This document shows, one piece after another, positions 2,721 to 50,135 of a stretch of 57,523 nt of DNA (within the stretch, counting starts at the first letter, position 1; every line of letters begins with the position of its first letter). The stretch is from Patescibacteria group bacterium. GTDB taxonomy: Bacteria > Patescibacteriota > Gracilibacteria > JAHISY01. The DNA lies in assembly GCA_043797545.1 (NCBI GenBank), contig JAZDPN010000073.1, forward strand, positions 1 to 57,523, given 5' to 3'. The position numbers and the translations under genes were made by a program. Under the pieces are notes generated by a model. The model was not told the DNA's origin. It searched no databases and saw only the letters and a list, made by a program, of their open reading frames with translations.

Positions 2721-3761
2721 ATGAATTTAATTTTGAATGTCAACCAAAATTTTGCGAATTTTTTGGACGAGTCGCGGCGCGACATTTGGCGCTACGCGAA
2801 AATTTTGAGCGATTCGAAAATTGTGAATTTTGTCGACCCGCTGCAAAAAGATTTCACGAAAATCGAGCGAATAGGGGATTTTTGGGTGAAACGGGAAGAC
2901 GAGAGCGCAGTCGGCTCACACAAATTTCGTGCACTCGCGTTCCAAATTTCCCAACTTCTAGAAGCGAAAATCGACCGTGCTGTCCTCTCAAGCTCTGGTA
3001 ATGCTGCAATCGCGGCCTCGCAAATCTTGCCAGAAAATACGAATTTGAAGCTCTTTGTGTTTTTGTCGAAGAAGACACCACCCGCCAAGTTGGCCGGGCT
3101 GAAATTTTCGAAAAACCTTGTTCCGATCCTCTCCGAGCGCCCATTGCGGATGGCGAAATATGCCGCGAAACACTTTGATTTAAGAGATTTACGTCCGTCA
3201 GTCGATCCTAACGCTGCTGTTGGTTTTTGCTCGCTCGGCTTCGAGATTTTCGAGCAAAAACCAGCTATTGAGAATATTTTCAGCTTCGCGACGAGCTTCG
3301 CGAGCGTCCGCGGCATCGCCGAGGCGTTTAAGTTTTTAGTCAAAATCGGTGCTCGGCAAAAAATGCCGAAGATTTTCGCGGTCACCTCGAGTGGAAGGCT
3401 GGCTGGCGAGTTGAGCAGGCAACGAGTAGACACGAGTAGACAAGCAAAAGTTGTCCAGTGGACAGAAGTAGACACAAGTGGACAACGAGTAGCGAAGTCC
3501 GCCGAAGCCTCGGCGAAGGCGGAACAGCTGGTAAATATCTCTGATGCAGAAATTTTGGCGACTCGTCAGAAACTGCCCGAGCTGAAAACTTCGAATGAAG
3601 GTTTGGCGAGTCTCGCCGCCGCCACGAAAATCAAACCGCAAGGGGAGACTTTGGTGATTTTGACGGGACGAGCTTGGCCGGACAAAAATGTTGATCTGGA
3701 TAAATTTGAAGAAGCTGACAATTTTGCAGAAGCTGATAAAATGGTCGCTCGTCATGGCTAA
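2721..3761 (+). CDS. PLP-dependent enzyme, fold type II (TrpB/ThrC/cysteine-synthase-like)
   Basis: Contains the lysine motif ESAVGSHKFRA, the SSSGNAAIAAS segment, and a glycine-poor TSSG loop. Carries repeat copy C in frame. The ATG at 2721 lies 13 bp from the divergent lysW-like start. Confidence 0.6.
   Translation: MNLILNVNQNFANFLDESRRDIWRYAKILSDSKIVNFVDPLQKDFTKIERIGDFWVKREDESAVGSHKFRALAFQISQLLEAKIDRAVLSSSGNAAIAASQILPENTNLKLFVFLSKKTPPAKLAGLKFSKNLVPILSERPLRMAKYAAKHFDLRDLRPSVDPNAAVGFCSLGFEIFEQKPAIENIFSFATSFASVRGIAEAFKFLVKIGARQKMPKIFAVTSSGRLAGELSRQRVDTSRQAKVVQWTEVDTSGQRVAKSAEASAKAEQLVNISDAEILATRQKLPELKTSNEGLASLAAATKIKPQGETLVILTGRAWPDKNVDLDKFEEADNFAEADKMVARHG
3425..3527. repeat. Composite repeat copy C (heptamer array, TGTCCAGTGGACA palindrome, hairpin TCCGCCGAAGCCTCGGCGAAGGCGGA)
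   Basis: GTAGACA occurs at 3426, 3436 and 3468, and GTGGACA variants are also present. The hairpin at 3498-3523 differs from 1478-1503 at 2 nt. Translated as SRQRVDTSRQAKVVQWTEVDTSGQRVAKSAEASAKAEQ. Confidence 0.9.
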
Positions 3762-4791
3762 TCTCCCCCGCAAAACGATTCATCTAGTCTCGCCTGACCC
3801 GCGCAAAATCGAGGGGTTGGAGCTGGCGTGGCCGCATTTCAAAATCTTCGTCTCGAAAATGAGTCCAGCGCTGCGCAAGGCCGAAAGAGCTGGCGCTGAA
3901 ATCGTGAATTTGAAGCTGCCAAAAATCAAGACTACGAGCGATTTATTGGTCGAATTAATCGGCCGGAAATTGGTGCGCAAGGGGAACCGGGTTTTGGTTT
4001 TCAAAAACCTGCCGAAAATCGAGCGGCTCGCCGCGAAACACAAATTCGAAATCCTAATGCCCGGATCGAGCTTTTTGAATTTGCTCGAAGACAAAATCAA
4101 CTTCGTGGATTTTTGTCACGAATTCGCGCTGCCGATTTTGCCGACGACGATTCGCGAGCTAAATCTCGTGCGCTTTCTCGAACCGGTCGTGATTCAGACG
4201 CGACGCGGACACGCCGGTGAGTCGACTTTTTTTATCCGCTCGCCCAAAGAGCTGGACAATTTGAAACGCAAAATAGGGGACTGGCCGGTCAAAATCACGC
4301 CGCTCAAAAAACTGCCTACTTTCACGCTCGATTTTTGTGTCACTGCGAACGGGATTTACGCGACGCAGCCGTTTTTCCAAATCACGGGCGATCCGAAATT
4401 GAATCCGCTGCCAGGCGGGACGGGCGGAATTGATTTCGACATCGCGGCGAAATTGTCGGACGCGACGAAAGGACGCATCGGCGCGCTCGTCGAGCTCGTC
4501 GGCGCAGCTTTGGAAAAAATCGGCTACCGCGGAATCGCGGGAATCGATTTCCTCGTCGATGACGCCAGCTCGAAAATTTGGCTGCTCGAGCTCAATCCGC
4601 GGCTGCTGAGCAATCTCGGTTTCGTGACACGGAAACAAGTCGAGGCGGGGGAGATTCCCCTTTTACAAATCCATCTTTTGGAATTTTTGGGTGAGGATTT
4701 ACGGAAATTCGATGCGCCAAAATTGAGCCGCGTGAATTCGGGAAGATTTGAAAATCCGCACCCGGACGCGCGGATGTTGATCGAAATTTAG
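3754..4791 (+). CDS. ATP-grasp family ligase
   Basis: The C-terminal GYRGIAGIDFLVDDASSKIWLLELNPRL is a typical ATP-grasp Mg/ATP motif. The ATG at 3754 overlaps the stop of the PLP gene (ATGGCTAA). Confidence 0.65.
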   Translation: MANLPRKTIHLVSPDPRKIEGLELAWPHFKIFVSKMSPALRKAERAGAEIVNLKLPKIKTTSDLLVELIGRKLVRKGNRVLVFKNLPKIERLAAKHKFEILMPGSSFLNLLEDKINFVDFCHEFALPILPTTIRELNLVRFLEPVVIQTRRGHAGESTFFIRSPKELDNLKRKIGDWPVKITPLKKLPTFTLDFCVTANGIYATQPFFQITGDPKLNPLPGGTGGIDFDIAAKLSDATKGRIGALVELVGAALEKIGYRGIAGIDFLVDDASSKIWLLELNPRLLSNLGFVTRKQVEAGEIPLLQIHLLEFLGEDLRKFDAPKLSRVNSGRFENPHPDARMLIEI

Positions 4792-7208: not shown

Positions 7209-7296
7209 GGAGTGGGTGAAGATTTTTAACCTACTCTAAAATTCACAAGTGTTTTTGCGTTGCACATTACACATTGATAATTAATAATTGATTCAC

Positions 7297-7371
7297 GGCC
7301 CCGTAGTTCAATGGATAGAACAATTCCGTCCTAAGGAAGAAATGTAGGTTCGATTCCTGCCGGGGCCACCA
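7297..7371 (+). tRNA. tRNA-Arg (anticodon CCT), CCA encoded
   Basis: Hand-folded cloverleaf: acceptor GGCCCCG/CGGGGCC, D stem GTTC/GAAC, anticodon loop GTCCTAA, T arm GTAGG-TTCGATT-CCTGC. Confidence 0.85.
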
Positions 7372-7378
7372 AAATGTT

Positions 7379-7403
7379 CTCCGCTGCAAGCGGAGGTTAT
7401 TTT
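7379..7403 (+). terminator. Intrinsic terminator after tRNA-Arg
   Basis: Stem CTCCGC/GCGGAG with loop TGCAA, followed by GTTATTTT. Confidence 0.6.
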
Positions 7404-7532
7404 GGTGATTGCGGTGGGTGAGAAATACAAAAGCTCGTGCTTTGTTTTTCGAAAAACATTTCGGCGCGCGCCGCCACAAAGTGGCCCCTTCGGGGCGAAA
7501 TAATTTAAAATTCGCACGCGCTCGCAGCGAAT

Positions 7533-7555
7533 TTCGATTCCTGTCGGGGCCACCA
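7533..7555 (+). repeat. Direct copy of the 3' 23 nt of tRNA-Arg(CCT)
   Basis: TTCGATTCCTGTCGGGGCCACCA versus 7349-7371 TTCGATTCCTGCCGGGGCCACCA (22 of 23). The upstream sequence cannot form a T stem, so this is not a second tRNA. Confidence 0.9.
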
Positions 7556-7556
7556 A

Positions 7557-9032
7557 TTAAAAATTCAATTCGCGAATCGCCTGCCAGCGCCCAACCGACC
7601 AAATCGGACCTCGAGTAATTGTTTGAATTTGGGTAAAAAGTTTTTGCAACTGCGAATCAGTCAGTAAATTTTTATTTTGTGAAAGCGAATCGAGATAGTC
7701 GGTCGGCAGCTCGCGCGCGAAATGCCCGATACGCCAATTCGGCGTGGCGGGAAGGCGCGCGAGAAATGCATCAGTGAGCGCATATTCATCGATGATCACG
7801 CAATCACGTGGCGCAAGAAATCCGTAAATGCCGACATTTGCGAACGATCGAATGCCGTGACATTCGCCCTGGTTTTTCGGCGCCCAAGAGTGATTTTCGA
7901 TACCGCCGAGACGAATCATCGCGAACAAAGAATTTTCTGATTCGAAAAATTCGCGCTCATCCGCGATGCCGAAATCGTTGATTGTTTTTGCCGCGATCGG
8001 ACTGCCCGAAAAATTAATTCCCCAGCCGACAACCGCGAACAGCAAAATAATTTTGGCGAATTTTTTGAGCTGAACAAGGTCGGGGATTTGTCCGAGCAAA
8101 ATTACCGAGCCGAAAAAAAGTGGGGCGAGGAAACGACCGGACATGAAGTCGCCGCCGATTTTGAGAATATAAATTAGATACAAACACAGTCCCGCCGCGA
8201 GGCCGAGCAGTTTTTTCGAGCGAGAAACGAGCGACCAAACGAACGCAGCGAAAATCGTCGCGAGCGTGAGCGGATCGCGAATGAAAGAGTCGATTAAATA
8301 TTTGCCGCCCTGCGCGAGCAAAGCGAGCGGCGCGATTCCGGTCGCGAGTTTCGCGTAAAAAGTATTTGGGAAAGGAAAACCGAAATAAATCAGCGCGAAA
8401 AATTCCCACAGAATGAGTGGCGTGTAGCCGAGCAAAATTTGACCGAACGCTTTTGCTTTGTGCGGCGCGGCGAAAAATTCCCAGAGCAAGACCGGAACGA
8501 AAAGCAAAATCGTGTCGAGGCGATTGACCGTGGCGAGTGCGGCGACGAAGGAAAGCGCAAGCAGTTTTCGCGGCGAATCTTTTTGGAAAAAAATGAAAAC
8601 GAAAAGCGCGAACAAAAGATTGGTCAGCGGATTTTCGAGGCCGGAAGTCGCGAAATCGAGAAAAGCGTGCGAAAAAAACAGAAGCGCGAGTACGAAAATT
8701 TTGGCGAAGTCGCGCGAGATTAATTTGCGCAATACGAGCGCGAGCGCGGCGCAGCTCGTCAAAAACGAGACGCTCAAAGTCGTGAAGTACGCTTCGCGGG
8801 TGAGGAAATAAAACGGCGTGAGCAGAAATAACCAAAGCGGGTGAGTGAAAACTTGGACACGCTCGACGACATTCCAGCGCAAGCCGAAACCGTGCACGAA
8901 GTTGTCGATCACGCGCAAGGTAATAAATGCGTCGTCGGAGATCCACGCTCGCGCGACGAGACGGACAAGTAAAAACCCGAGCAAAATTCCGATCCCGATT
9001 CGCAGCCAAGTTCGTTTTTTGAGTGCGTTCAT
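7557..9032 (-). CDS. GT-C fold membrane glycosyltransferase (ArnT/PMT/arabinofuranosyltransferase-like)
   Basis: About 12 TM helices and an N-terminal loop motif WISDDAFITLR typical of GT-C enzymes. Confidence 0.55.
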   Translation of the reverse strand: MNALKKRTWLRIGIGILLGFLLVRLVARAWISDDAFITLRVIDNFVHGFGLRWNVVERVQVFTHPLWLFLLTPFYFLTREAYFTTLSVSFLTSCAALALVLRKLISRDFAKIFVLALLFFSHAFLDFATSGLENPLTNLLFALFVFIFFQKDSPRKLLALSFVAALATVNRLDTILLFVPVLLWEFFAAPHKAKAFGQILLGYTPLILWEFFALIYFGFPFPNTFYAKLATGIAPLALLAQGGKYLIDSFIRDPLTLATIFAAFVWSLVSRSKKLLGLAAGLCLYLIYILKIGGDFMSGRFLAPLFFGSVILLGQIPDLVQLKKFAKIILLFAVVGWGINFSGSPIAAKTINDFGIADEREFFESENSLFAMIRLGGIENHSWAPKNQGECHGIRSFANVGIYGFLAPRDCVIIDEYALTDAFLARLPATPNWRIGHFARELPTDYLDSLSQNKNLLTDSQLQKLFTQIQTITRGPIWSVGRWQAIRELNF

Positions 9033-9060
9033 CGCGAAAATTTTACGCTAAAATCGCGCC

Positions 9061-9543
9061 GTGAAAATTGCGCTTATTTCAGATTCGCACGGCGCGCTCG
9101 ATCGACTCGAGGAAGTTTTGCACAATTTCGACACGGCTGGGATTCGCGAAATCGTGCACGCGGGGGATTTCGCGCTTGGAGAAATCGTGGAACTTTTGTC
9201 TAATTTTCCACAGTTGAGTTTCCGGATCGCACGGGGAAACTGCGATGTTGATACTGAGAAAATTTTGGCAATTGCGAATTTACCGAATGTCGAACTCGAG
9301 GAAATTTTGGAGTTCGAGCTCGGCGGACGGCGCATCGCGGTCGCGCATCGGATTCGAGATTTAGCCAATTCAGACGCGCCAATCTTGATTTCTGGACACA
9401 CGCATATTCCGAGCGCGAAAGCGGTGAATGGAAAATTATTTTTGAATCCGGGCTCGCTGATGGATGACGGCGGCTATTTCATTTTGGATTTGGCGAATTT
9501 AATTGTTGAGCGCAAGCTTTTTTCTGACAAAGCTCTGGCTTAA
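9061..9543 (+). CDS. YfcE/MJ0936-family metallophosphoesterase
   Basis: Motifs ISDSHG, HAGDF, GNCD and SGHTH. GTG start. Confidence 0.75.
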   Translation: MKIALISDSHGALDRLEEVLHNFDTAGIREIVHAGDFALGEIVELLSNFPQLSFRIARGNCDVDTEKILAIANLPNVELEEILEFELGGRRIAVAHRIRDLANSDAPILISGHTHIPSAKAVNGKLFLNPGSLMDDGGYFILDLANLIVERKLFSDKALA

Positions 9544-9567
9544 AATTGGGCTGCGCTATTTGGAAAC

Positions 9568-10083
9568 ATGGACCGAATCGAAGTTCACAAAACGATCGCC
9601 ATCGTCACTATCAAGCTAATGATTTTGCAGCTGTTTTTTGCCTTGGTATATTTGGCGACATCTTTGATTAGTGATTCTGTTGATCTATACAACAACGGCA
9701 CTTTTATGAATCTAATCGCTTACGACAGTCTGACTTTTATAATTATTGCTTTGGTGCATTTGGCAATCACTTCGTATATTTTTTTGCAGTGGACGATGGA
9801 AAAATACATTCTCCTGCCCGACAAAATCCGCCATCAGTGGGGGATTCTTTTGCGGCAGACCAATTCTTGGGACATTAGCAATATCGAAACTGGCTATATC
9901 ACCGAAAGCGTAGTCGCGCGGCTTTTTGGTTATGGCACGATTACCTTTCACAGCCCGACTTTGGAAACGCGCGTTGTTTTGCGCGATGTTCCCTCGCCTT
10001 CTTTGGTCACGAATTACATTGAGAAAAATTTGGCTTTGCTTGGTAAATCGCCAATTAAGTATTTGAAAGCTGATTCTAAATAA
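9568..10083 (+). CDS. Membrane protein with a bacterial PH (YdbS/YdbT-like) domain
   Basis: Two N-terminal TM helices, then a WDISNIETGYITESVVARLFGYGTITFHS pattern. Confidence 0.45.
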   Translation: MDRIEVHKTIAIVTIKLMILQLFFALVYLATSLISDSVDLYNNGTFMNLIAYDSLTFIIIALVHLAITSYIFLQWTMEKYILLPDKIRHQWGILLRQTNSWDISNIETGYITESVVARLFGYGTITFHSPTLETRVVLRDVPSPSLVTNYIEKNLALLGKSPIKYLKADSK

Positions 10084-10142
10084 AAAATAATGTTGCATTT
10101 AGCTAACTTTGAGTTAGAATTAGCTCACTTTAATTTTTAAAA

Positions 10143-10523
10143 ATGCAGTACAAAAGATATCGCTCGCTCAAAATCGGACTTGTGATGCTACTCGCTGCGA
10201 CTGTCGGTGGCTTCGTCAGTCAGGGAAATTTTGTGATTCCGCTGGTCGCTTTTGCGATCGCCGCAGGAACAATTTTTCTAGTCAGTCGTCACGTTGATTC
10301 CGTTCAAAATGATGAGCGCATCGAAAAAATCGGCGGCAAAGCGGCGCGCTGGATACTCGCGATTTTTGCAATCGGAGGCGCGATCGCGAGCATCGTCCTC
10401 ACCGCGCTCGCCAAAGATAATCCGATTTATCAAATTCCGGCCTATATTTTTTCGGGTCTAGTTTGGTTTGTCTTGGTTGGACATCTGGTTTTGTTTTATT
10501 ATTTCAATCGCAAAGGCGAATGA
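10143..10523 (+). CDS. DUF2178-like membrane protein
   Basis: Four TM helices. Translationally coupled (ATGA) to a small XRE regulator, which is the usual DUF2178 context. Confidence 0.4.
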
Positions 10524-10714
10524 AAAACCGGATCAAAATTTTTCGCGCACAGTTTGATTTGACACAGAACGCACTCGCGGAAAAAGTCGGCGTGCGTCGC
10601 GAGACGATCGTTTTTCTCGAACAAGGAAAATACAATCCCTCGCTCGAGCTCGCTTTTCGCATCGCGAAAGTTTTTGGCGAACCGCTGGAAAATGTTTTTA
10701 TTTGGGAAAAATAA
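10520..10714 (+). CDS. XRE-family HTH transcriptional regulator (YozG-like)
   Basis: The sequence [48 protein letters not shown] is a canonical Cro/C1 HTH. Confidence 0.8.
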
Positions 10715-10717
10715 ATC

Positions 10718-10740
10718 TGGCGGAGGGAGAGAGATTCGAA
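10718..10740 (-). repeat. Direct copy of the 3' 23 nt of tRNA-Ser(GGA)
   Basis: TGGCGGAGGGAGAGAGATTCGAA versus 10881-10903 TGGCGGAGGGAGGGGGATTCGAA (21 of 23), in the same orientation as the tRNA. Confidence 0.9.
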
Positions 10741-10880
10741 GCTGGCTTCAAGTTCTGTTTTTAATTTGAGATTGTCGGCGGCGCGCGCCGAAATGGTTCG
10801 CGAAATACGGAACGCGAGCTACCAGGTGTCTCACCCACTCCCCGCGCCAAAAAATTCGCCTGTGCGGGGGCAATTTTTCG

Positions 10881-10970
10881 TGGCGGAGGGAGGGGGATTC
10901 GAACCCCCGAGGCAGTTGCCCGCCTACCCGCTTTCCAAGCGAGCGCACTCGGCCACTATGCGATCCCTCC
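10881..10970 (-). tRNA. tRNA-Ser (anticodon GGA), long variable arm, CCA encoded
   Basis: The reverse complement folds with acceptor GGAGGGA/TCCCTCC, anticodon loop TTGGAAA, an extra arm GGCGGGCAACTGCC, and T arm GGGGG-TTCGAAT-CCCCC. Confidence 0.85.
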
Positions 10971-11034
10971 GTTTTAGCGAAATTTCAAAACTGGGCGAGG
11001 CAACCCTCACCCCGATTTGCGAAGTGAGGTTGAA

Positions 11035-13144: not shown

Positions 13145-13189
13145 AAAAATCCGCCAATTTTAGCAGAAATATAAGCTAAAAACAATTCG

Positions 13190-13232
13190 TTTTATTTCAA
13201 ATACTCATCCCACGCCTTGATCGGCAACTCGA
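13190..13232. repeat. Direct repeat, left copy: duplicate of the last 13 codons, stop codon and 3 downstream nt of carB
   Basis: GTTTTATTTCAAATACTCATCCCACGCCTTGATCGGCAACTCGA matches 14560-14602 with one mismatch. Confidence 0.9.
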
Positions 13233-13280: not shown

Positions 13281-13475
13281 ATGTTAAAATGCGCAGAAAC
13301 AAAAACTATGAAATCCAAACAAAAATCACTCCTGCCGCTTGCGGCTGAGATGCTGCAAACGCTCGACGCGGCACAAGAAAAAGAATTGGCACGCAAAAAA
13401 ATACTCGCGAAACGAACCGAGGAACTTTCTTCGCGAATCGAAGATTTCGAACAAACACAAAAACTTTTGGGTTAA
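13281..13475 (+). CDS. Small coiled-coil protein (64 aa), cassette gene 1
   Basis: ORF in an AT-rich segment. Its stop overlaps the next start (TAATG). Confidence 0.4.
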   Translation: MLKCAETKTMKSKQKSLLPLAAEMLQTLDAAQEKELARKKILAKRTEELSSRIEDFEQTQKLLG

Positions 13476-14560
13476 TGTCAATCGAAAACAAAGACCGACC
13501 ACCTGTTGCCAAAACAGAAACTGAGCTTGAGCGTTTAATGCCCGAGTACGCCGAAATGCGTGATGCGATTATTAATGTAGAGGTGGCCGCAAACAAAATG
13601 GAGCTGCAAAAAAGACAAGCCGACGATATTAACAATGAAATCGTTGATCGTCTGTCAACAATTAAAGTGAAAATAGATCAGCTCGCCAAAAAATATCCCG
13701 ACAACGATAGTCTGCGGATACTTATGGATATGTACGAAGATATTAGTCAGGATTTTATTTACAGTAGGAAAACTCGGGTTGACACAAGTTTGCAAAAAAG
13801 ATTGGCGGAAGTGCAAAAATCTGTCGTCGATGCTGGAATTACTACCGTTCCCTCGGAAAATATTGATAACCCGAAAACAAAAGAATTGGTCGCAAAGATG
13901 CAGCAACTCGGAATCCCGATTGAACGAGTCACAACTCGCCCAAACGCAGACCGAACTGTGATTCTGATAGTCTGGGCCCATCCCAATCCCGGGATGAATG
14001 AGGAAGTAAGAAAGGAGTTCGGCATCTTTGAAAGTCAAAACAAAGTTAATGATTATATTGCCAAATTATCTCAAGCTGGAATTTCAAATCATGTACTTAC
14101 CGAGGGAATTCCGGCCAATATAAGTCCTGAGCTTAAGGCAAAAGTCTTAGCTGAAATGGCCCAAAATGGGTTTCCGTTTATAAATTTAACAAATATTTCT
14201 ATTGAGGGTGTCGAAAACAAAGCTTTTTTGCTAAAAACAGCAACCGATTTAAGTTCAGCTAATTACCAAATCAGGGCAACTATCAACAATATAGTCATGG
14301 CTCACAACATCGAAAATTCTATGCGGTCTGGAGAGGTTTCGATCGCCGTCATGGGCGCGGCTCACGAATTTGAAATCGATCAGAGCGAACATCAATTGTC
14401 TTACTCGCAGGCCACCTCTTTCGAAGCTAATGCTAATGTGATTGTCATAAATACGGCAAGGGAGTTCTACGAAGCTACTCGCGACCCTAAAAAAATGGAG
14501 CTCATGAAGCAAGCAGCAGCCAATTTTCAGGCAGGGATTAAAGAACAGTTTTCGAAATAG
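13475..14560 (+). CDS. Hypothetical protein (361 aa), cassette gene 2
   Basis: Long AT-rich ORF with an N-terminal coiled coil. The C-terminal half carries VWAHPNP and VMGAAHEFE motifs. I can assign no family with confidence. Confidence 0.55.
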   Translation: MSIENKDRPPVAKTETELERLMPEYAEMRDAIINVEVAANKMELQKRQADDINNEIVDRLSTIKVKIDQLAKKYPDNDSLRILMDMYEDISQDFIYSRKTRVDTSLQKRLAEVQKSVVDAGITTVPSENIDNPKTKELVAKMQQLGIPIERVTTRPNADRTVILIVWAHPNPGMNEEVRKEFGIFESQNKVNDYIAKLSQAGISNHVLTEGIPANISPELKAKVLAEMAQNGFPFINLTNISIEGVENKAFLLKTATDLSSANYQIRATINNIVMAHNIENSMRSGEVSIAVMGAAHEFEIDQSEHQLSYSQATSFEANANVIVINTAREFYEATRDPKKMELMKQAAANFQAGIKEQFSK

Positions 14561-14602
14561 TTTTATTTCAAATACTCATCCCACGCCTTGATCGGCAGCT
14601 CG
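14560..14602. repeat. Direct repeat, right copy (functional 3' end of carB)
   Basis: See 13190-13232. Confidence 0.9.
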
Positions 14603-17600
14603 AGATCGCGATATTGCTCGAGCGAATCGACAACCAATTTCGCAACCTGCGGATTGACGAACAACGGAATGCCGAAGTCCGTCGCGCGGCGGCGAATCAG
14701 ATAGCCGTTCGTCATTTCCTCGGCTTGATAATTTTTCGGAATATTCACGACCATGCCAATTTGTTTTTGGGCAAAAAGGTCGAGGACGTTTGGCTTCTGC
14801 TTCTCGAGCGGAAAATGCACCAAAGTATTCGCCACACCGTTGTCGGTCAAAAAGCGAGAAGTGCCCGGCGTCGCGAAAAGTTTGAAACCCATCGCGATCA
14901 GTTTTTGCGCGGAGGGGAGGAAGGCCAATTTCGAATCAATCGATCCAGTCGAGATGAGAATATTTTTCTTCGGCAAACGGAAGCCGACCGCGATCTGCGC
15001 TTTGAGAAAAGCTTCGTGCAAATTCTCGCCGAAACACGCGACTTCGCCGGTCGACGCCATCTCGACGCCGAGCGTCGGATCCGCACCTTTGAGCCGCGAG
15101 AAAGAAAACTGCGCGGCTTTCACGCCGACGTGATTGAGGTCGAGAGTTTGGTAGTTTTGTTTCCGCCACGCTTTCGGCGCGACTTTGCCGAGCATCGCCT
15201 CGATCGCGATCGCGATGAAATTGTGCCCGGCAGTTTTGGAAACGAACGGGAACGAGCGGCTAGCTCGTAAATTTAACTCTATGACCGCGACACGATTTTC
15301 TTTCGCGAGAAATTGAATGTTGAATGGGCCAGTGATTTTGAGTTCCGCGGCCAATTTTTTCGCGATAATTTTGATGCGTTTAATCGTCTCGAGATAAGTT
15401 TTTTGCGGCGGCAAAACCAAAGTCGCGTCGCCCGAGTGGACGCCAGCATTTTCGACATGCTCGGAAACCGCGAAAATTACGAGCTTCCCGTCGGCGGCGA
15501 CTCCGTCGAAATCGATTTCGCGCGCGCCTTCTTCAAATTTCGAAATCACGACGGGCGCGTCGGTTGAAATTTTCGTGGCCTTGGCCAGATAATTTTGGAG
15601 CTGCTCGGCGGTGAACGCGACGGACATCGCCGCGCCGGAGAGAACATAACTCGGACGAACGAGCACCGGGTAGCCGACTTTTTTCGCGAATGACATCGCG
15701 TCAGAATTTTGGGTGAACTCGGACCACTGCGGTTGGTCGATCTCGAGCGAATCGCAAAGCTGCGAGAATTTTTCGCGCGACTCGGCGCGGTCGATCGAAA
15801 CCGGGGAAGTTCCGAAAATCGGAACTTTTTCCGCCGCCAATTTTCCGACGAGATTATTCGGAATTTGTCCGCCCGTCGAGACGACGACGCCTTTCGGTTT
15901 CGTGAAATCGAGAATGTCGAGGACGCGCTCGACGGAAAGCTCGTCGAAATAAAGTTGGTCGCAGGAGTCGTAATCCGTCGAAACAGTCTCGGGATTGTAA
16001 TTGATCATGATTGTCTCGAAACCGTTTTTCGCTAAAGTTTGGACGGCGGAGACACAGCACCAATCGAATTCGACGGACGAACCAATGCAGTACGCGCCGC
16101 TTCCCAAAACAACCGCGCGGGGCCGTAGCCCGCCGAAGCTCGAAGAGCGAAGGCCGGGTTTTTTGGAGAATTTAATTTCGTCGCTCGTATCGCCGTGGTA
16201 GGTCAAATAAAGATAATTTGTTTTCGCGGGAAACTCCGCAGCAAAAGTGTCGATTTTTTTGACGACCGGGAGAATACCGAATTTTTTGCGGCGTTTGCGA
16301 ATTTCCAATTCTCCGACGCCCGCACGCCACGCGATTTGCGAATCGGAAAAGCCCAATTTTTTTGCACGGGAAAACTCGTCTTTCGACAATTTTCCTTTTT
16401 GGGCTTTGAGAATGTCGCGCTCGAAGTCGGCGATGTTTTTGCATTTTTCGAGAAACCACTCGTCGATGCCGGTCAGTTTTTTAATTTTTGCGACCGACCA
16501 ACCGTCGCGCAGCGCGCGCGCGATCGCGAAAATTCTTTCCGGCGTCGGCTTGGAAATAACTTTTTCGAGCGAGTCGAATTTGAAATTGGCGTGACTGAAA
16601 CCGTACGCGCCGACCTGCAACATGCGCAGCGCTTTTTGCAAAACTTCCTCGAACGAGCGACCGATCGCCATCACTTCGCCGACCGATTTCATTTCGCTGC
16701 CAATCTCGGCGGAAACTTTACGGAATTTTTGGAGATCCCAGCGCGGGATTTTGAGAACGAGATAATCGAGCGCCGGTTCGAAACACGCGGTCGTGTTGCC
16801 GGTCACCGCATTCGGGACTTCGTCGAGTCTTTTGCCGAGCGCGAGTTTCGCAGCGACATGCGCGAGCGGATAGCCGGTCGCTTTCGACGCGAGCGCGGAG
16901 GAGCGCGACAAGCGCGCATTTACTTCGATCACACGATAATCAATTTTGTGCGGATCGGTCGGATTCGGATGCAGCGCGTATTGAATATTGCATTCGCCGA
17001 CGATGCCGAGGTGTCGAATCACGCGAATCCCGATTTCGCGGAGCGCGTGATATTCGTAATTGTTCAAAGTTTGCGACGGCGCGACGACGATCGACTCGCC
17101 GGTGTGAATGCCGAGCGGATCGAAATTTTCCATGTTACAAACCGTCAAACAGGTGTCGGCGGAATCGCGAACGACTTCGTATTCGATTTCTTTCCAGCCG
17201 CGCAAATCTTCTTCGATCAAAACTTGCGGCGACGCCGAGAACGCGACTTCGAGTAATTTTTTCAGCTCGGCAGGATTTTGAGCGAAGCCCGAGCCTTTGC
17301 CACCGAGCGCGTATGCTGCGCGAACAATCACCGGGAAACCAATTTTTTTGGCGGCGGCGATTCCTTCAGCTTCGTTGCGCACGGCTTGCGCACGCGCGGT
17401 CGTCACTCCAATTTCGTTTAATTTTTTGACGAAAAGTTCGCGGTCTTCGGTCGCCTCGATCGCAGAAATTTGCGTGCCGAGAACTCGAACTTTGTGTTTT
17501 TTGAAAACACCGCGCTTTTCCAGCTCAACTCCGCAATTGAGCGCGGTCTGACCACCGAAAGCTAGCAAAATTCCGTCCGGCTTTTCTTTTTCGATGATCC

Positions 17601-40115: not shown

Positions 40116-40978
40116 AACTTTTTGCTAAACAAATCGCCGAGTTAAATTTGCGAAATCGCGAATACCGCGATTTTGTCGCGAAATTACTGGGTTTTTTATT
40201 GAAAGCCGATTTGGGGGAAGGCGACCTGACGACAAAATTATTGTCTCGGCCGCGACAAAAAGTTCGCGCGCGCGTCGTCGCGAAGTCGAGTGGAATTTTG
40301 GCGGGCGTCGCCGAGTTGAAATTTTTTTGGGAGCAAAACGGCATCCGAATTTTGTCCGCGAAAAAAGATGGAGCAAAAATCAAAAAAGGCGATTTGGTTT
40401 TGGAAATCGCTGGCCCGGCTGAAAAAATTCTAGCGGCGGAACGAGTCGGCCTGAATCTGCTCGGCAGAATGTCGGGCGTCGCGACCGCGGCGGAAAAACT
40501 CGCGCGGAAAATCGGACGCGGAAAATTCGCGGCGACACGCAAAACTCCGCTCGGAATTTTGGATTCGCGCGCGGTCGTCGTCGGCGGCGGACTTCCACAC
40601 CGGCTGAATTTGGGTGATCAAATTTTGGTGAAAGAAAATCACCGCGCAGTCGAAGCAAATTGTTGGCAAAAAATTCCGACGGGGAATGTTTTTGAAATCG
40701 AGGCGGATTCACCGAAGTTGGCACTCGAAATTGCGACGCGTTTCGCAAACGCGAAAAATCTAATTTTGATGCTCGACAATTTTTCGATTGCACAGTTTCG
40801 GAAAACGGCTGTTGCGATTCGGAAAATAAACCCGCGGATAATTTTGGAGGCGAGCGGCGGGGTTGATGAAAAATCCGCCGGGAAATTTTTGCGCGCTGGG
40901 GCAGATTTTGTCTCGCTCGGGAAACTAACGAATTCTGTCGCGGTTGTCGATTTTAGTTTAAAAATTTTGACAAAATGA
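40112..40978 (+). CDS. nadC: Nicotinate-nucleotide pyrophosphorylase (carboxylating)
   Basis: Motif TRKTPLGILDSRAVVVGGGLPHRLNLGDQILVKENH. ATGA overlaps on both sides. Confidence 0.85.
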   Translation: MKLFAKQIAELNLRNREYRDFVAKLLGFLLKADLGEGDLTTKLLSRPRQKVRARVVAKSSGILAGVAELKFFWEQNGIRILSAKKDGAKIKKGDLVLEIAGPAEKILAAERVGLNLLGRMSGVATAAEKLARKIGRGKFAATRKTPLGILDSRAVVVGGGLPHRLNLGDQILVKENHRAVEANCWQKIPTGNVFEIEADSPKLALEIATRFANAKNLILMLDNFSIAQFRKTAVAIRKINPRIILEASGGVDEKSAGKFLRAGADFVSLGKLTNSVAVVDFSLKILTK

Positions 40979-42390
40979 AAACTGATTTTCTCGTCGTCGG
41001 CTCTGGAATCGCCGGACTCACTTCGGCCTTATTCCTGGCGAAAAAGGGCAATGTGCTGATCGCAACGAAAAAAAATTTACTCGAGTCGTCGTCGCGCTTT
41101 GCACAAGCTGGCGTCGCTGCCGTGCGCAATTTCAAGTGGGATTCGTTCGACGAACATTTCGCCGACACGCTCGTCGCCGGCTGCCAAGTCAATGACCGAA
41201 AGGCGACGCGCTTTTTGGTCGAAAATGCGCCGAAATTGGTCGACTGGCTTGAGTCGGAAATCGGCGTGAAATTCGCGAAAGAGCCGACACGCGAAGCGGC
41301 GCACTCTCACTCGCGCGTATGGAACACGAACGATTCGACTGGCGAAACGATCGAAAAAGCGCTCGCGCGAAAAGTTCGCGCAAATCGGAGAATTCGCGTT
41401 TTGGAAAAAACGACTTTACTAGATTTGATTTTGGAAAAAGGAATTTGCCGCGGTGCGTGGCTACTGCGAAACGGAAAAGTTGAATCTGTTTTCGCAAGCA
41501 AGGTAATTCTCGCAACAGGTGGTTTCGGGCAGCTTTTCGCGAAATCGACAAATCCGGAGGTTTCAGTCGGCGACGGGATCGCGGCAGCCGCACGCGCCGG
41601 CGCAAAATTAAAAGATTTGGAATTTATTCAATTTCACCCGACCGCACTCGTCGGCAAACAAACGCGGCTGACTTTGTTTTCGGAAAGTCTCCGCGGGGAA
41701 GGCGCGGTACTGCGCAACTCGCGCGGCGAAAGATTTTTGCCGAGTTATCATCCCGCCGCCGAACTCGCCCCGCGCGATGTAGTCGCGCGCGCGATTTTCG
41801 CGGAATTGAAAAATGGTCCGGTTTTTCTCGACTTCACGCGCGCGAGCGCAAAGTTCTTATCAAATCGCTTTCCGTTAATTTGGGGCGAAGTGAAGAAAGC
41901 CGGCTTCGACTTGTCGAAAGATTTGATCCCAATTTTCCCGGTCGCGCATTACTCCTGCGGCGGTGTCGCAGTAAATTTGCGTGGCGAAACGTCAGTGTCG
42001 AATTTGCTCGCGGTCGGCGAAGTCGCACGTACCGGATTGCATGGCGCGAACCGACTCGCTTCGAATTCGCTCGCTGAGGCGCTCGTTTTCGGAAAATTTT
42101 TGGGCGAAACGGCGCAACTTTCGAAAGTTGACGAATTTAAAGTCAGGCCGCCAAAATTTACTTTCAGCCTGAAAGAAGATTTGAAAATCCGGCAAAAAGT
42201 CCGGGGAATAATGTGGGAAAAGGTCGGAATCGTCCGCACGAAAAAAGGACTCGCGGCGGCAGTCGCCGAGCTCGGGAAGCTGCGACCAAAAAGTTTAGTT
42301 GCGCGAAATGCAGTGCTCGTTGCGTCGCTCGTCGCGAATTCAGCAAAAAAACGAACAAAAAGCCTCGGGACGCATTTTTTGGCGAAATAA
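40975..42390 (+). CDS. nadB: L-aspartate oxidase
   Basis: FAD motif DFLVVGSGIAGL plus the RFAQAGVAAV, HPT and HYSCGGV motifs. Confidence 0.85.
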   Translation: MKTDFLVVGSGIAGLTSALFLAKKGNVLIATKKNLLESSSRFAQAGVAAVRNFKWDSFDEHFADTLVAGCQVNDRKATRFLVENAPKLVDWLESEIGVKFAKEPTREAAHSHSRVWNTNDSTGETIEKALARKVRANRRIRVLEKTTLLDLILEKGICRGAWLLRNGKVESVFASKVILATGGFGQLFAKSTNPEVSVGDGIAAAARAGAKLKDLEFIQFHPTALVGKQTRLTLFSESLRGEGAVLRNSRGERFLPSYHPAAELAPRDVVARAIFAELKNGPVFLDFTRASAKFLSNRFPLIWGEVKKAGFDLSKDLIPIFPVAHYSCGGVAVNLRGETSVSNLLAVGEVARTGLHGANRLASNSLAEALVFGKFLGETAQLSKVDEFKVRPPKFTFSLKEDLKIRQKVRGIMWEKVGIVRTKKGLAAAVAELGKLRPKSLVARNAVLVASLVANSAKKRTKSLGTHFLAK

Positions 42391-42399
42391 TCGCAAAAA

Positions 42400-42417
42400 T
42401 GGTGCGCCCGGCAGGAT
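42400..42417 (-). repeat. Direct copy of the 3' 18 nt of tRNA-Arg(TCG)
   Basis: TGGTGCGCCCGGCAGGAT is identical to 42593-42610, in the same orientation. Confidence 0.9.
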
Positions 42418-42555
42418 AAATTCGCCATGGGCGAATTGGGCTGCTGCGTCGCTCGCGCACGACAAACAGCTACGCTGTTGTCGCGACTCGCTATCCTCGC
42501 AGAACGAACCTCGCTTGCTTCGCTGCGCGGCAAATTTTCACCACGCCCGACAACC

Positions 42556-42582
42556 ACGCAAAACCTGCCCGCTTCGCGGGTC
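42556..42582 (-). terminator. Intrinsic terminator after tRNA-Arg(TCG)
   Basis: On the minus strand: CCCGC-GAA-GCGGG followed by CAGGTTTT. Confidence 0.5.
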
Positions 42583-42592
42583 AGAACTTGCG

Positions 42593-42669
42593 TGGTGCGC
42601 CCGGCAGGATTCGAACCTGCAACCCCCGGTTCCGAAGACCAGTGCTCTATCCAGTTGAGCCACGGGCGC
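42593..42669 (-). tRNA. tRNA-Arg (anticodon TCG), CCA encoded
   Basis: The reverse complement folds with acceptor GCGCCCG/CGGGCGC, D arm GCTCAACTGGATAGAGC, anticodon loop CTTCGGA, and T arm GCAGG-TTCGAAT-CCTGC. Confidence 0.85.
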
Positions 42670-42779
42670 GCGCCGCGATTTTAGCATTTTTACTGGGAAA
42701 TAATCCTTGATTTTGGCAAGTCTTCGTGATTGAGGAAAATGCTTAAAAATGCTAAAATGTCCGGATTTAAAAGCCAAAA

Positions 42780-45092
42780 ATGCAAACAAAAATCATCGCG
42801 AGCCTGCTCGGAATGATCAGCTTAATTTGCTTGGCAAATCCGGCTTTGGCAAGCCAAGTGCCTGCTGGATACGTCCTCGTCCCAGCCGATGTTTTCTTCG
42901 GACAAGGCTCAAGTGTTATCGCTCCGAACACCACTGTGGCCGAGGTTTCGACTAGCAAATCGAGTGTCCGGGTCAACGACGAAATTGGTTATGTCGGTGA
43001 AAAATACTCAGTCGCAACCGTCACTCTGCGCGACGAGGCGAATCGACCAGTCGCCGGGGAAAGCGTAACCCTGATTTCTTCGCGGGCAACCGACTCAATC
43101 AAGGCTTTGCAAAACGAAACAAATTCCAATGGTGAAGCCTCTTTCCAGGTTTTAGCCAAAGGAGAAGGTGTTAGCTCTCTGACAGCTCTCGCGGGCAATC
43201 AAACAATTCTCGAACGACCACGCATTGTCTTTTTGCAGAAGGCCGGAGGCATCGGTGGAAACCTCTTACGAGCTGACGTCGTGACGGCCAGCGCACCGAC
43301 AAAAAAAACGGTTGCAGCAACGCTAACTACTAATCAGGTTTTTGCGGATTTCCCCAATACAATCAAGGCCGACACACCAACCGACATTACGGTCACAATC
43401 AAAGATGCTGACGGGAAAATCGTAGAGGATTTTCGCGGAACGATTAATTTCCAGAGTTCCGACTCGCTTGCGATTCTGCCCAAAGAATATACGTTCGGCG
43501 AACTCGACCGTGGTTCACATAATTTTGCTAATGCTGTCACCATGCTGACGGCAGGCGACCAAACAATCACAATTGCTGGCGACACAAATCTGGGTTCGCA
43601 GGAGGTTCCTGTGAAAGTCTTGGACGGAGTGGGCGGAGTCGCGACACCCGTAATCACCAGCCCGACTGACGGCGCACTTTTGAATAAGACAGTCTTGCTC
43701 GAAGGACTCGCTCCGGTAAACTCAAATCTTGTTGTTTTCACGGATGGCCAATTTTTGAAAAATGGGCAATCTGACGGCGACGGTAAGTTTTTGATCGATG
43801 CTGACTTAGTAGACGGACAGCACGAAATTACGGTCGGTGTTTTGAAAAACGACAGCTCTGTCGGAGCTGTCTCGGAAGCTATTAGGGTTAATCTTGATAA
43901 AACCAAGCCTGTTTTGGAAGATGTTTCTCTCGACCCGGGCAACCGCGTCGTGAGCGGCCAGCTCGTGAAAATAACCGTTAAAAGTGAGTCTGCTCTCGCC
44001 GGAGCGCAGTTCCGGATTGAGAATGAATCCGATGATTTGATTGAGTCATCGGTCGCCGGAACATACACTGGCGAATTCACCGCTCCGGCCGACGGTGCTT
44101 ATTTCGTAAGCGTCGAGTTGACTGATAAGGCCGGGAATATTGGCTCTTTCCCGGAAGCAACCAGCATCCTTGTCGAAGTACCGATTACAATTGAAAAAGT
44201 CGAAACTACACCCCGCGATGGTCGAGTGGATTTACGCTGGGATGCACCGGCGAATACGGCTAGCATCGCGCATTACGAAATTTTTTACGGGACGGATAAA
44301 GAACAGCTCGACAAGAAATTCACGACGACAGATAATCGCACGGCCTGGTTTATTGATAACCTAAACAACAACACAAAATACTTTTTTCGCGTCGTTTCGG
44401 TCGACGCTGACAGCAAGCAAAATGGTGGCAGCGAGATTGTCCAGGCGACTCCGACCGCTATGGTCGCAGCAACCGGTTGTGATTCAAAAATTATTTTAAG
44501 CTGGCAGACGCCGACTAATTCCAAGATCGCTAATTATCGACTCGACTACGGAGTCGCAAGCGGTGATTACGCCGAGAGTCGATTACTTTCGGGTGGCAAA
44601 AAATTAAAACAGTGGGAGGTGCGTGATCTCGTGAATGGTTCACCTTATTTTTTCGCTTTGCGCGGAGTCGATGACTTCGGCGAAGTCGTCGCCGATATGG
44701 GTGAGGTCAGCGCGACTCCGACCGCGGGCGAGGTCTGCGGCTCGATCGAACCAATTCAGCTTTTTCAGAAAAGAGATGCTGCTGGCAACATTTTCCTGGT
44801 TTGGAACCCTGTTGCCGGTGCGACCAGTTATCGGATTTACGCCGGGACGCAGCCAAATGTCTTTGATCTACCAACAGTCGAGGTCGCCGCAAATGCTTTT
44901 CAGCCTAAAGGGCTCGCCAAAAACACTGATTACTATTTTGCGGTAAGCGCGGTTTTTTCCGGAGTCCACAACGCCGCGACCCTGTCAAACGTCACCAAGG
45001 TCGAGGTCGGGCCAGCCGAAATAATTTTCATCTCCCTGATCGCGGCCTTCGTGGGCAGCCTCCTGATTAGGCGAAAATTTTCCCGGAGCTAA
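42780..45092 (+). CDS. Large surface protein with Ig-like (Big) and fibronectin type III repeats and a C-terminal TM anchor
   Basis: Signal peptide, invasin-like SVTLISSRATD...NGEASFQV, several FN3-like W..P modules, and a terminal hydrophobic helix plus RRKFSRS. Confidence 0.65.
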   Translation: MQTKIIASLLGMISLICLANPALASQVPAGYVLVPADVFFGQGSSVIAPNTTVAEVSTSKSSVRVNDEIGYVGEKYSVATVTLRDEANRPVAGESVTLISSRATDSIKALQNETNSNGEASFQVLAKGEGVSSLTALAGNQTILERPRIVFLQKAGGIGGNLLRADVVTASAPTKKTVAATLTTNQVFADFPNTIKADTPTDITVTIKDADGKIVEDFRGTINFQSSDSLAILPKEYTFGELDRGSHNFANAVTMLTAGDQTITIAGDTNLGSQEVPVKVLDGVGGVATPVITSPTDGALLNKTVLLEGLAPVNSNLVVFTDGQFLKNGQSDGDGKFLIDADLVDGQHEITVGVLKNDSSVGAVSEAIRVNLDKTKPVLEDVSLDPGNRVVSGQLVKITVKSESALAGAQFRIENESDDLIESSVAGTYTGEFTAPADGAYFVSVELTDKAGNIGSFPEATSILVEVPITIEKVETTPRDGRVDLRWDAPANTASIAHYEIFYGTDKEQLDKKFTTTDNRTAWFIDNLNNNTKYFFRVVSVDADSKQNGGSEIVQATPTAMVAATGCDSKIILSWQTPTNSKIANYRLDYGVASGDYAESRLLSGGKKLKQWEVRDLVNGSPYFFALRGVDDFGEVVADMGEVSATPTAGEVCGSIEPIQLFQKRDAAGNIFLVWNPVAGATSYRIYAGTQPNVFDLPTVEVAANAFQPKGLAKNTDYYFAVSAVFSGVHNAATLSNVTKVEVGPAEIIFISLIAAFVGSLLIRRKFSRS

Positions 45093-49085: not shown

Positions 49086-49338
49086 GATAAAAAAATTAAA
49101 AGATTAGACCAGTATTTTTATAAACTAAACGAAGCCGGACAAGGCCGCATCATTAAACCTTAATTAAGCTAGACGCATTAATTCTGGGACAAAAAACGAC
49201 GAGCAGTATTTGCTCGCAGGCTAAATCCAGTCCAGCTTTGAGCGCGACTAGGCATGCAAATTTCGCTAAGCCAAATATTTAGCTGTTTTTCGTTCGACGA
49301 AAAATTAATTTTAAACCAAGAATATTTAAATAAACGCT

Positions 49339-49755
49339 TCACGCCAATTTAAAAGGGTTTCCAAATGCTTTAGGGTTTCTCTCAAGAGCTTCAAATATTT
49401 TTCTTGTCGCAGGTGTTGCTTTACCCCTTTCTATAACCTCCTCGTAAACAAGCTTCATTCTTTTGCAGCGGTCTTGCCAAAATTTTTGCGAGCAGAATTC
49501 ATCTCTTTTTTTAGGCATTCCTTTTAAAAAAACAAAGAGCATGTTTTGTATTACCCGAAAAGCGCTTCGAGTTCTTTCTTTGTGCCAATCATTTTGGGTG
49601 GCTTCATTTTTAAAAATCTCGCCAGAACGAAGTTTTTCTAAAAAAGCCAAAAACACAAGAGCCTGTTTTTGCGCCGTTATCATTTTTCTTTCGCGATCTT
49701 CGCTGTTGTTTTCAGGAGTGCCGAATAAAAGCAACGCGGCATCTCGAGATAACAT
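49339..49755 (-). CDS. Hypothetical protein (138 aa) in an AT-rich segment
   Basis: An ORF only. Helical, with no recognised motif. Confidence 0.35.
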   Translation of the reverse strand: MLSRDAALLLFGTPENNSEDRERKMITAQKQALVFLAFLEKLRSGEIFKNEATQNDWHKERTRSAFRVIQNMLFVFLKGMPKKRDEFCSQKFWQDRCKRMKLVYEEVIERGKATPATRKIFEALERNPKAFGNPFKLA

Positions 49756-49758
49756 TCT

Positions 49759-49980
49759 TTAAATAAGATTAAGCGATATTTCGCCGTTGAGCGCCCCATT
49801 CCTAATCTCTTGCAACGCCCCTCGCGCAAGCGCTACCTCTCGTCGTAAATTTTTAAACGCCCTCACGTGCGCTGGCGTTTGATTTATAAAAGCCCGCGGA
49901 GCATCTTTTGCCCACCGTTTTCCTCTCTGAGTGTTGCTTACATGAGGCTCACCGCAATTTTTTTGAGATGCATATCGCAT
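49759..49980 (-). CDS. Hypothetical small basic protein (73 aa)
   Basis: An ORF only, 3 nt upstream of the previous one. Confidence 0.3.
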   Translation of the reverse strand: MRYASQKNCGEPHVSNTQRGKRWAKDAPRAFINQTPAHVRAFKNLRREVALARGALQEIRNGALNGEISLNLI

Positions 49981-50033
49981 AGAAGGTCACATTCTAGTAA
50001 AAAATTCGACATAGTCAAACGGTGTAATCGGAA

Positions 50034-50120
50034 TTAATTTTCCGCGCCGCAACATTTTTTGTATTTCTTCCCCGAGCCGCCCACCTTCGTTCGTTGTGAC
50101 GAACTACGGTGGGCTTCGCT
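50034..50120 (-). pseudogene. Relic of a SEC-C metal-binding motif (…KVGGSGKKYKKCCGAEN*) directly downstream of secA
   Basis: The minus-strand translation of 50034-50081 gives GGSGKKYKKCCGAEN-stop. There is no start codon and the first Cys pair is missing. The secA terminal codons read [14 protein letters not shown]. Confidence 0.6.
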
Positions 50121-50135
50121 AAATTTAAAATTTAA

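Follow-up and report, generated by a model that had tools for sequence, protein, structure and literature searches.

The tRNA-linked repeat (TLR) family of Escherichia coli comprises 22 members at ten loci in tRNA or rRNA operons, and the last 18-19 bp of each member repeat without mismatch the 3' end of the gene that immediately precedes it (Stenum et al., PMC8144298). Knowledge of TLRs in E. coli dates back to 1978 (PMC8144298), and the 178-bp repeats of tyrT and tyrV encode RttR (rtT RNA) (Egan & Landy 1978 and Rudd 1999, as cited in PMC8144298). RrA, RrB and RrF, located in the trailers of rrnA, rrnB and rrnD between two terminators, are produced by read-through and their repeated end is thought to act as an RNase E processing signal; the TLRs of tRNA operons have been assigned neither a function nor an origin (PMC8144298). 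Here, we analyzed a stretch of 57,523 nucleotides from a Patescibacteria group bacterium (contig JAZDPN010000073.1 of assembly GCA_043797545.1, hereafter the window), in which a tRNA-Arg(TCG) gene is followed by a co-oriented 193-nt module that consists of a 175-nt spacer and an 18-nt copy of the T-loop-to-CCA end of the tRNA. On the basis of its architecture, its dynamics among related genomes and the evidence of constraint, we interpret this module, with moderate confidence, as a TLR-type unit, i.e. a trailer of the tRNA gene. The module and its surroundings were compared with related genomes, of which L080 (GCA_043799575.1) and L090 (GCA_021734705.1) are the most informative, and the features discussed below are the following:

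42593-42669, minus strand: tRNA-Arg(TCG) gene with encoded CCA (ARAGORN; Rfam RF00005, 68 bits), identical in L080
42593-42610, minus strand: the 18-nt tRNA-end segment that is duplicated downstream (exact repeat)
42553-42596, minus strand: trailer stem-loop of 44 nt (RNAfold -29.9 kcal/mol, alike in the window and L080)
42418-42550, minus strand: conserved spacer core (GUGGUGAAAAU ... CCCAAUUCGCC-CAU-GGCGAAUUU), with profile matches in the window, L080 and L090 only
42419-42437, minus strand: 8-bp hairpin immediately ahead of the distal copy (AAUUCGCC-CAU-GGCGAAUU), its stem invariant in the three genomes
42400-42417, minus strand: distal 18-nt copy of the tRNA 3' end (exact repeat), followed by UUUUU
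42670-42779, no strand assigned: context, the divergent promoter region shared by the tRNA gene and the Big_1/fn3 gene (alignment; promoter-like sites)
40975-42390, plus strand: context, nadB, encoding L-aspartate oxidase (Pfam FAD_binding_2, E 8e-84; homologues so named)

The distal 18-mer genuinely duplicates the end of the tRNA gene at this locus. An exact repeat search confirmed the original prediction that a perfect 18-nt copy of the tRNA 3' end lies 175 bp downstream of the gene, next to the nadB stop codon: TGGTGCGCCCGGCAGGAT is present at two places in the window and no others (42400-42417 and 42593-42610), identity ends at both edges of the 18-mer, and the TAA of nadB (42388-42390) is 9 nt from the distal copy. 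Only 0.01 matches to this 18-mer would be expected by chance at up to two mismatches, none of 100 shuffles yielded two, and the pair forms the longest local direct repeat within the window. Read in the sense of the tRNA, the repeat (AUCCUGCCGGGCGCACCA) begins at base 6 of the T-loop and covers the last 2 nt of the loop, the 3' halves of both the T-stem and the acceptor stem, the discriminator and CCA. Set against the definition of TLRs in PMC8144298, the unit is directly downstream of a tRNA gene on the same strand, presumably in a common transcription unit, and its end is identical to that of the gene at 18 of 18 nt, including CCA.

The 175 nt between the two copies start with the base directly after the tRNA CCA and comprise, in this order, the 44-nt stem-loop, a short linker and the core of about 130 nt that ends in the 8-bp hairpin. 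The spacer has a GC content of 60%, versus 19-44% for the other intergenic regions (the whole window, 49%). The short terminator hairpin followed by TTTTG, with which the spacer had been said to begin, is present, and it turned out to be the inner part of the larger stem-loop listed above, in which ACCACGCAAG pairs with UUUUGCGUGGU around the inner hairpin CCCGC-GAA-GCGGG and the ACCA of the tRNA is paired as well. The inner stem is followed by just four U residues (GGUUUUG) and a scan for consensus terminators left the stem-loop uncalled; the fold prediction thus describes a weak terminator-like element that would sequester the tRNA ACCA. At the other end of the core, the hairpin preceding the copy has a different loop in each of the three genomes (CAU, UAU and AUA) on an unchanged stem, and it is the only hairpin to combine an invariant stem with three different loops.

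Several other identities of the spacer were considered and rejected. It is not a degenerate tRNA copy, as it resembles its own tRNA nowhere outside the terminal copy. An antisense open reading frame (ORF) of 85 aa (42427-42684) loses its ATG in L080 and is shifted in frame in L090, and inspection of the sequences revealed no sense-strand ORF of the spacer conserved across the window, L080 and L090. The reading of the plus strand (TGG...18-mer) as a primer-binding site of a retroelement was dropped, since the copy always equals the end of the neighbouring tRNA; no reverse transcriptase was present among the Pfam matches of the scanned window ORFs. In the Rfam scan the spacer matched no family.

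The second line of evidence is conservation. We aligned 22 kb of the window with L080 and obtained an overall identity of 75%, with a median of 79% per 150-nt window; all top-ranked 150-nt windows were inside 42400-42799. The genes were 66-89% identical and the other intergenic regions 59-80%, in comparison to 98.3% for the spacer (3 differences in 175 nt), 100% for the copy and the tRNA, and 97.3% for the region upstream of the tRNA. Precisely at 42399/42400 the identity dropped from 100% to about 50%. Even at the rate of coding sequence, as few as 3 differences in the 175 nt of the spacer have a binomial p of ~4e-8. Against L090, the spacer core (84.4%) was about as similar as the tRNA (83%), whereas identity was 72% for nadB, 63-75% for further genes and about 66% for intergenic regions elsewhere. 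The L080 and L090 identities together indicate that the spacer evolves approximately as slowly as the tRNA, and it is the best-conserved segment of the neighbourhood, apart from the tRNA and its promoter region. Region 42670-42779 stays conserved also in relatives that have no unit, so this part of the block is probably constrained for ordinary promoter reasons.

The third line of evidence comes from the presence, absence and rearrangement of the unit among relatives, where the order nadB - tRNA-Arg(TCG) - Big_1 is conserved. L080 (NadB 92% identical) has the unit with the same junctions and 172 of the 175 spacer nucleotides. In L081 (NadB 82%), L082-84 (79%) and L092, the tRNA is followed by unrelated sequence and no copy, i.e. 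by clean empty sites. The unit is rearranged in L090 (NadB 82%), which by nadB DNA (72%) is the most distant of the set: within an intergenic region of 510 nt, its order is circularly permuted to core, copy, trailer, so that the trailer (AGUAAGUUCUGACCCC...), whose window homologue directly follows the tRNA, comes after the distal copy. The complete order in the sense of the tRNA is a 5'-end duplicate with an insert, the tRNA, 41 nt, a 36-nt fragment, the core homologue, the copy and the trailer. The upstream part of this array (1706-1759 in L090) consists of a 12-nt duplicate of the tRNA 5' end and a 42-nt hairpin insert, and the fragment downstream of the gene (1552-1587) is a piece of tRNA-Arg(TCG) that starts in the anticodon loop.

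The circular permutation between genomes shows that the tRNA-end copy is the point of recombination. The copy in L090 reads CCUGG, as does its own tRNA, and the window copy reads CCGGG; the copy thus tracks the sequence of its own tRNA. Altogether, these comparisons show that recombination at the tRNA-end copies accounts for the gain, loss and rearrangement of such units.

Two further tRNAs in the window belong to this comparison. We refer to the spacers behind tRNA-Arg(CCT), tRNA-Ser(GGA) and tRNA-Arg(TCG) as spacers 1, 2 and 3, respectively. tRNA-Arg(CCT) has a 23-nt copy of its 3' end with one mismatch, ending at 7555, and a 161-nt spacer (7372-7532); tRNA-Ser(GGA) has a 23-nt copy with two mismatches (10718-10740) and a 140-nt spacer (10741-10880). 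The statement that all three tRNAs in the window carry the feature is therefore correct, as each is followed by a copy of its own T-loop-to-CCA end. A stretch of ~95 nt is homologous between spacers 1 and 2 (nhmmer E 2e-9 to 6e-9; Smith-Waterman z 12.7, reached in 0 of 1000 shuffles). At spacer position 31 both have a G/U-rich box (UGGUGAUUGCGGUGGG / UGGCGCGGGGAGUGGG) that is complementary to the cognate tRNA 3' end, pairing at 14 positions with the own tRNA end versus 8-10 with the end of the other tRNA, and three positions have changed on both sides of the box/tRNA-end pairing (U-A/C-G, C-G/G-C and G-C/A-U). A small same-frame ORF in these two spacers (VGE..SS..VFR..FRRAPP) has no ribosome-binding site. 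The two spacers are inverted around a 3.2-kb segment between two convergent tRNAs (7556-10718), with genes for a 491-aa protein with no Pfam match, Metallophos_2, bPH_2, DUF2178 and HTH_3; L085, L086 and L088 have a different set of genes here, which marks the segment as a variable spot.

The relatives again show both empty and occupied sites at these two loci. L085, L088 and L089 have empty 3' sides, and in L086 two identical 60-nt units (3134-3234), each made of a 41-nt spacer and a 19-nt copy, lie behind tRNA-Arg(CCT) and are followed by a 23S_rRNA_IVP gene. This L086 spacer is not related to spacer 1, which lies behind the same tRNA in the window. A partial duplicate of the 5' end precedes tRNA-Ser(GGA) in L085 (6670-6972) and L086 (170-562), with a small GIY-YIG nuclease ORF between the duplicate and the gene; L086 additionally has a 5' fragment of a second tRNA-Ser type. 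The combination of duplicate and nuclease resembles a cassette of the homing type by which the 5' part of the tRNA would be replaced. The locus behind tRNA-Arg(TCG) is most economically described as a TLR-type unit in a lineage whose tRNA genes commonly bear small insertions bounded by duplicated tRNA ends. A search of the window for a similar TLR-like 3'-end copy at 5S rRNA found none.

The original prediction had regarded the three spacers as one structured RNA family, of which spacer 3 is a diverged copy, and here our results are largely negative. Spacers 1 and 2 are genuinely homologous, the three share their architecture (tRNA, hairpin, spacer of 140-175 nt, copy of the own end), and a UGGUG/UGGCG motif past the first hairpin can pair with the NCCA of the tRNA in all three. 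However, in Smith-Waterman alignment spacer 3 scored no better than background against spacer 1 or 2 (z 0.8; reached in 243-245 of 1000 shuffles), nhmmer gave no match at E<=1000 in either direction, the three-genome profile of spacer 3 did not match spacers 1 and 2, and a covariance model built from spacers 1 and 2 and applied unfiltered gave spacer 3 a score of 5.1 bits (E 9.8, rank 104 of 106). Spacer 3 has no significant similarity to the blocks that characterize the other two (GTGGGTGAGA, AGCTCG and CATTTCGGCGCGCGCCGCC). The resemblance of its GGGCGTGGTGAAAAT box to GTGGGTGAGAAAT is visible by eye, with no statistical support from nhmmer, Smith-Waterman, the profile or the covariance model, and the pairing of the long anti-3'-end box with the tRNA end (RNAduplex z -4.6 for Ser and -2.2 for Arg-CCT) is missing from spacer 3 (z +0.9). 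As a third case, the locus thus stands with regard to architecture and falls with regard to a sequence or structure family; the lack of supported similarity between spacer 3 and the other two had been named as what would refute the idea, and for sequence relatedness this is what we observed. We consider descent of all three from one family very unlikely.

The boxes of spacers 1 and 2 (GGGTGAGA N20-50 TTCGGCGCGCGCC) gave 79 matches in genome contigs, which were scattered among unrelated taxa, for the most part of high GC, and in no case adjoined a tRNA (the nearest was ~380 nt downstream of one, in L068); the two-box pattern is too loose for GC-rich genomes. In metagenome contigs there were 0 matches to a stricter form of the pattern and 0 to a 22-mer of the spacer-3 core.

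If the module is a TLR-type unit, its function can be outlined by analogy with RttR and RrA/B/F. The tRNA promoter would read through the weak hairpin/U4 signal past the tRNA, the spacer would be made as part of the tRNA precursor, and the tRNA-like 3' end would provide the trailer RNA with a defined, tRNA-style site of 3' processing. The predicted fold of the spacer is more stable on the tRNA-sense strand (z -3.1) than on the antisense strand (z -1.9). A number of observations weigh against such an interpretation. The proposed read-through and processing are inferred from the E. coli analogy. The RtT model RF00391 gave no match, either at the gathering threshold or at E<=10, in 42350-42720 or 7250-11000, and none in the relatives; the same model detected the four E. 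coli tyrT units used as a positive control at 133-138 bits. Spacer 3 has no long anti-3'-end box and only UGGU(G) pairs. Among the 26 differences between the window and L090 there are 0 double compensatory changes, in a set of three sequences of which two are near-identical; 5 predicted pairs are broken, 5 one-sided changes keep pairs, and the longest hairpin of the window is lost in L090. The predicted RNA structure is therefore weak evidence for the spacer. Moreover, the entire 42400-42800 block, including the tRNA and the promoter region, is 4-5x closer to L080 than scaling from L090 predicts (5 differences observed, ~27 expected, p ~2e-7). Since this excess of similarity extends over the whole block, the two lineages could have exchanged the block recently, which would account for the excess in place of selection on the spacer.

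Alternatively, the module may be the footprint of a site-specific integration or a miniature integrative element devoid of an integrase, and an RNA function would then not be required. We regard this as possible and clearly less probable than the TLR-type reading. An element of the tyrosine-integrase type would have crossed over in the T-loop/acceptor sub-site, bringing the present tRNA end and trailer as element DNA and displacing the original end, now the distal 18-mer; the ~175 nt, about the size of an att arm, would have been left behind or mobilised in trans. The Islander signature of a tRNA gene with a co-oriented downstream 3' fragment that starts at the anticodon loop or the T-loop/acceptor junction (PMC4383910; crossover sub-site classes from Williams 2002, as cited therein) is seen here, since the window fragment lies downstream, is co-oriented and starts from T-loop position 6, and L090 adds the 36-nt fragment that begins in the anticodon loop. 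The L090 junction of core end, copy and trailer equals the attP predicted from the two junctions of the window (GGCGAATTT-ATCCTGCCGGGCGCACCA-CGCAAGTTCTG), the distal copy is equal to each host's own tRNA, and the patchy distribution is incongruent with nadB distances, with spacers more similar than host genes. Furthermore, 43 of 79 matches of the 17-mer tRNA end in IMG/VR (78 viral contigs) were outside any tRNA gene, which shows that this tRNA-Arg end is commonly an att core. Islander, however, demands an integrase between the tRNA and the fragment and an interval of 2-200 kb (PMC4383910), and the interval here is 175 nt, i.e. below the 2 kb minimum, with no integrase, cargo or conserved ORF; none of the scanned ORFs of the 57-kb window had an integrase or transposase Pfam match. 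The 17-mer contigs share only the tRNA end: no viral contig has the spacer or either junction, with 0 matches each for the spacer-1/2 pattern, the tRNA/trailer junction and the core 22-mer. Three tRNAs with three diverged or unrelated spacers do not point to a recent burst of one element, and a decaying scar would hardly be the best-conserved segment, unless it had been acquired very recently in each lineage.

A local tandem duplication of the tRNA 3' end and its native flank, caused by slippage or unequal crossing-over and selectively neutral, would need no enzyme gene and would be expected to give circular permutations and tandem arrays by unequal crossing-over between the repeats. We find this quite improbable: the window has no second copy of the spacer past the distal 18-mer, the sequence after the tRNA in empty-site relatives is unrelated, so that the spacer is not native flank, the duplicated part starts within the T-loop at each of three different tRNAs here and likewise in E. 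coli, and conservation far exceeds the neutral level. A repeat mis-joined at the tRNA during assembly can practically be dismissed. The 26-kb L091 contig stops 28 nt past nadB (4417-4444), at the start of the tRNA 3' end, as such an artefact might predict; yet the unit and its junctions are present in independent assemblies (the window and GCA_043799575.1, and rearranged in GCA_021734705.1). The end of L091 at this locus may itself be an assembly break due to repeats. We thus retain the TLR-type reading for the present unit; with respect to its ultimate origin, we infer that recombination at the T-loop/acceptor sub-site, which tyrosine integrases use in tRNA genes, is most likely.

As to the genomic setting, the closest relatives of the NadB and DHQS-II proteins of the window are from metagenome-assembled genomes labelled Patescibacteria group, Candidatus Peribacteraceae and Gracilibacteria. 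nadB, with nadC upstream of it, is convergent with tRNA-Arg(TCG), and the gene for a Big_1/fn3 surface protein (42780-45092) is divergent from it. Three other places in the window were noticed. The region 49086-50135 has ~860 nt more than its intergenic counterpart in L080 and holds an ORF of 138 aa with no Pfam match (49339-49755). Recurring triplets of the AGTAGACA type followed by a GTCCGCC...GGCGGAAC hairpin were found at 222-254, 1433-1513 and 3411-3533, near the starts of NlpC/P60, Mur-ligase and ATP-grasp/PALP genes, and may represent a leader or regulatory element common to these genes. An ORF of 361 aa with no Pfam match (13475-14560) is flanked by a direct repeat of 49 nt whose two copies (13184-13232 and 14555-14603) are 94% identical.

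A broader suggestion, which we make tentatively and consider rather unlikely, is that TLR-type units are a general bacterial device and not an enterobacterial curiosity, with the small Peribacteraceae modules, either independently evolved or repeatedly acquired, copying the T-loop-to-CCA end of the tRNA behind which each of them lies. If so, they could be miniature elements devoid of an integrase that spread horizontally from one tRNA gene to another through recombination at the tRNA end, or selected trailer RNAs in which the mimic of the tRNA end couples production and 3' processing to transcription of the tRNA; the exceptional conservation of spacer 3, and in spacers 1 and 2 the box that covaries with the cognate tRNA end, would then point to a function. 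An architecturally identical, non-homologous unit in a distant lineage with reduced genomes offers comparisons that E. coli does not, since relatives have clean empty sites, a circularly permuted unit or tandem arrays, and the copies match their own tRNA. These units make it possible to test, with comparative genomics and metatranscriptomics, how they arise (recombination at the T-loop/acceptor sub-site versus slippage) and whether they are retained for a reason. For annotation, tRNA-end fragments in candidate phyla radiation (CPR) genomes should not, on their own, be taken for island boundaries or pseudo-tRNAs.

Compared with known systems, the locus shares with tRNA-integrated islands and prophages the intact tRNA with a displaced co-oriented 3' fragment, the precise empty sites in relatives, the sub-sites at which the fragments start (T-loop/acceptor in the window, anticodon loop in L090) and the attP-like junction of L090. 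Unlike them, the window unit has neither integrase nor cargo, measures 175 nt and not 2-200 kb, and has a spacer that is the most conserved part and not a variable one. Spacers 1 and 2 resemble spacer 3 in layout, in similar length and in the terminal segment of the cognate T-loop-to-CCA end, and differ from it in their mutual homology and in the box at position 31, found only in these two. The differences from E. coli TLRs concern sequence and host: there is no sequence or covariance-model similarity to the window unit, which, as no homology was detected, appears non-homologous both to them and to spacers 1 and 2; the host is enterobacterial in one case and a Patescibacteria/Peribacteraceae-like genome in the other; and the E. 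coli units have an internal stretch that pairs with the 3' copy, which has an analogue in spacers 1 and 2 and none in spacer 3. The likeness is one of architecture. When we checked tyrT/tyrV of E. coli K-12, the 19-nt AATCCTTCCCCCACCACCA, which starts in the T-loop, recurred every 175-178 nt with 19 of 19 nt identical, and the annotated RttR RNA ends on one of these copies. In both systems the unit is immediately downstream of the tRNA gene and co-oriented with it, a hairpin separates the gene from the unit, and the spacer of 156-175 nt ends in an 18-19-nt copy that starts inside the T-loop (one base later in the window) and includes CCA; tandem multiples occur in both E. coli and, among the relatives of the window, L086.

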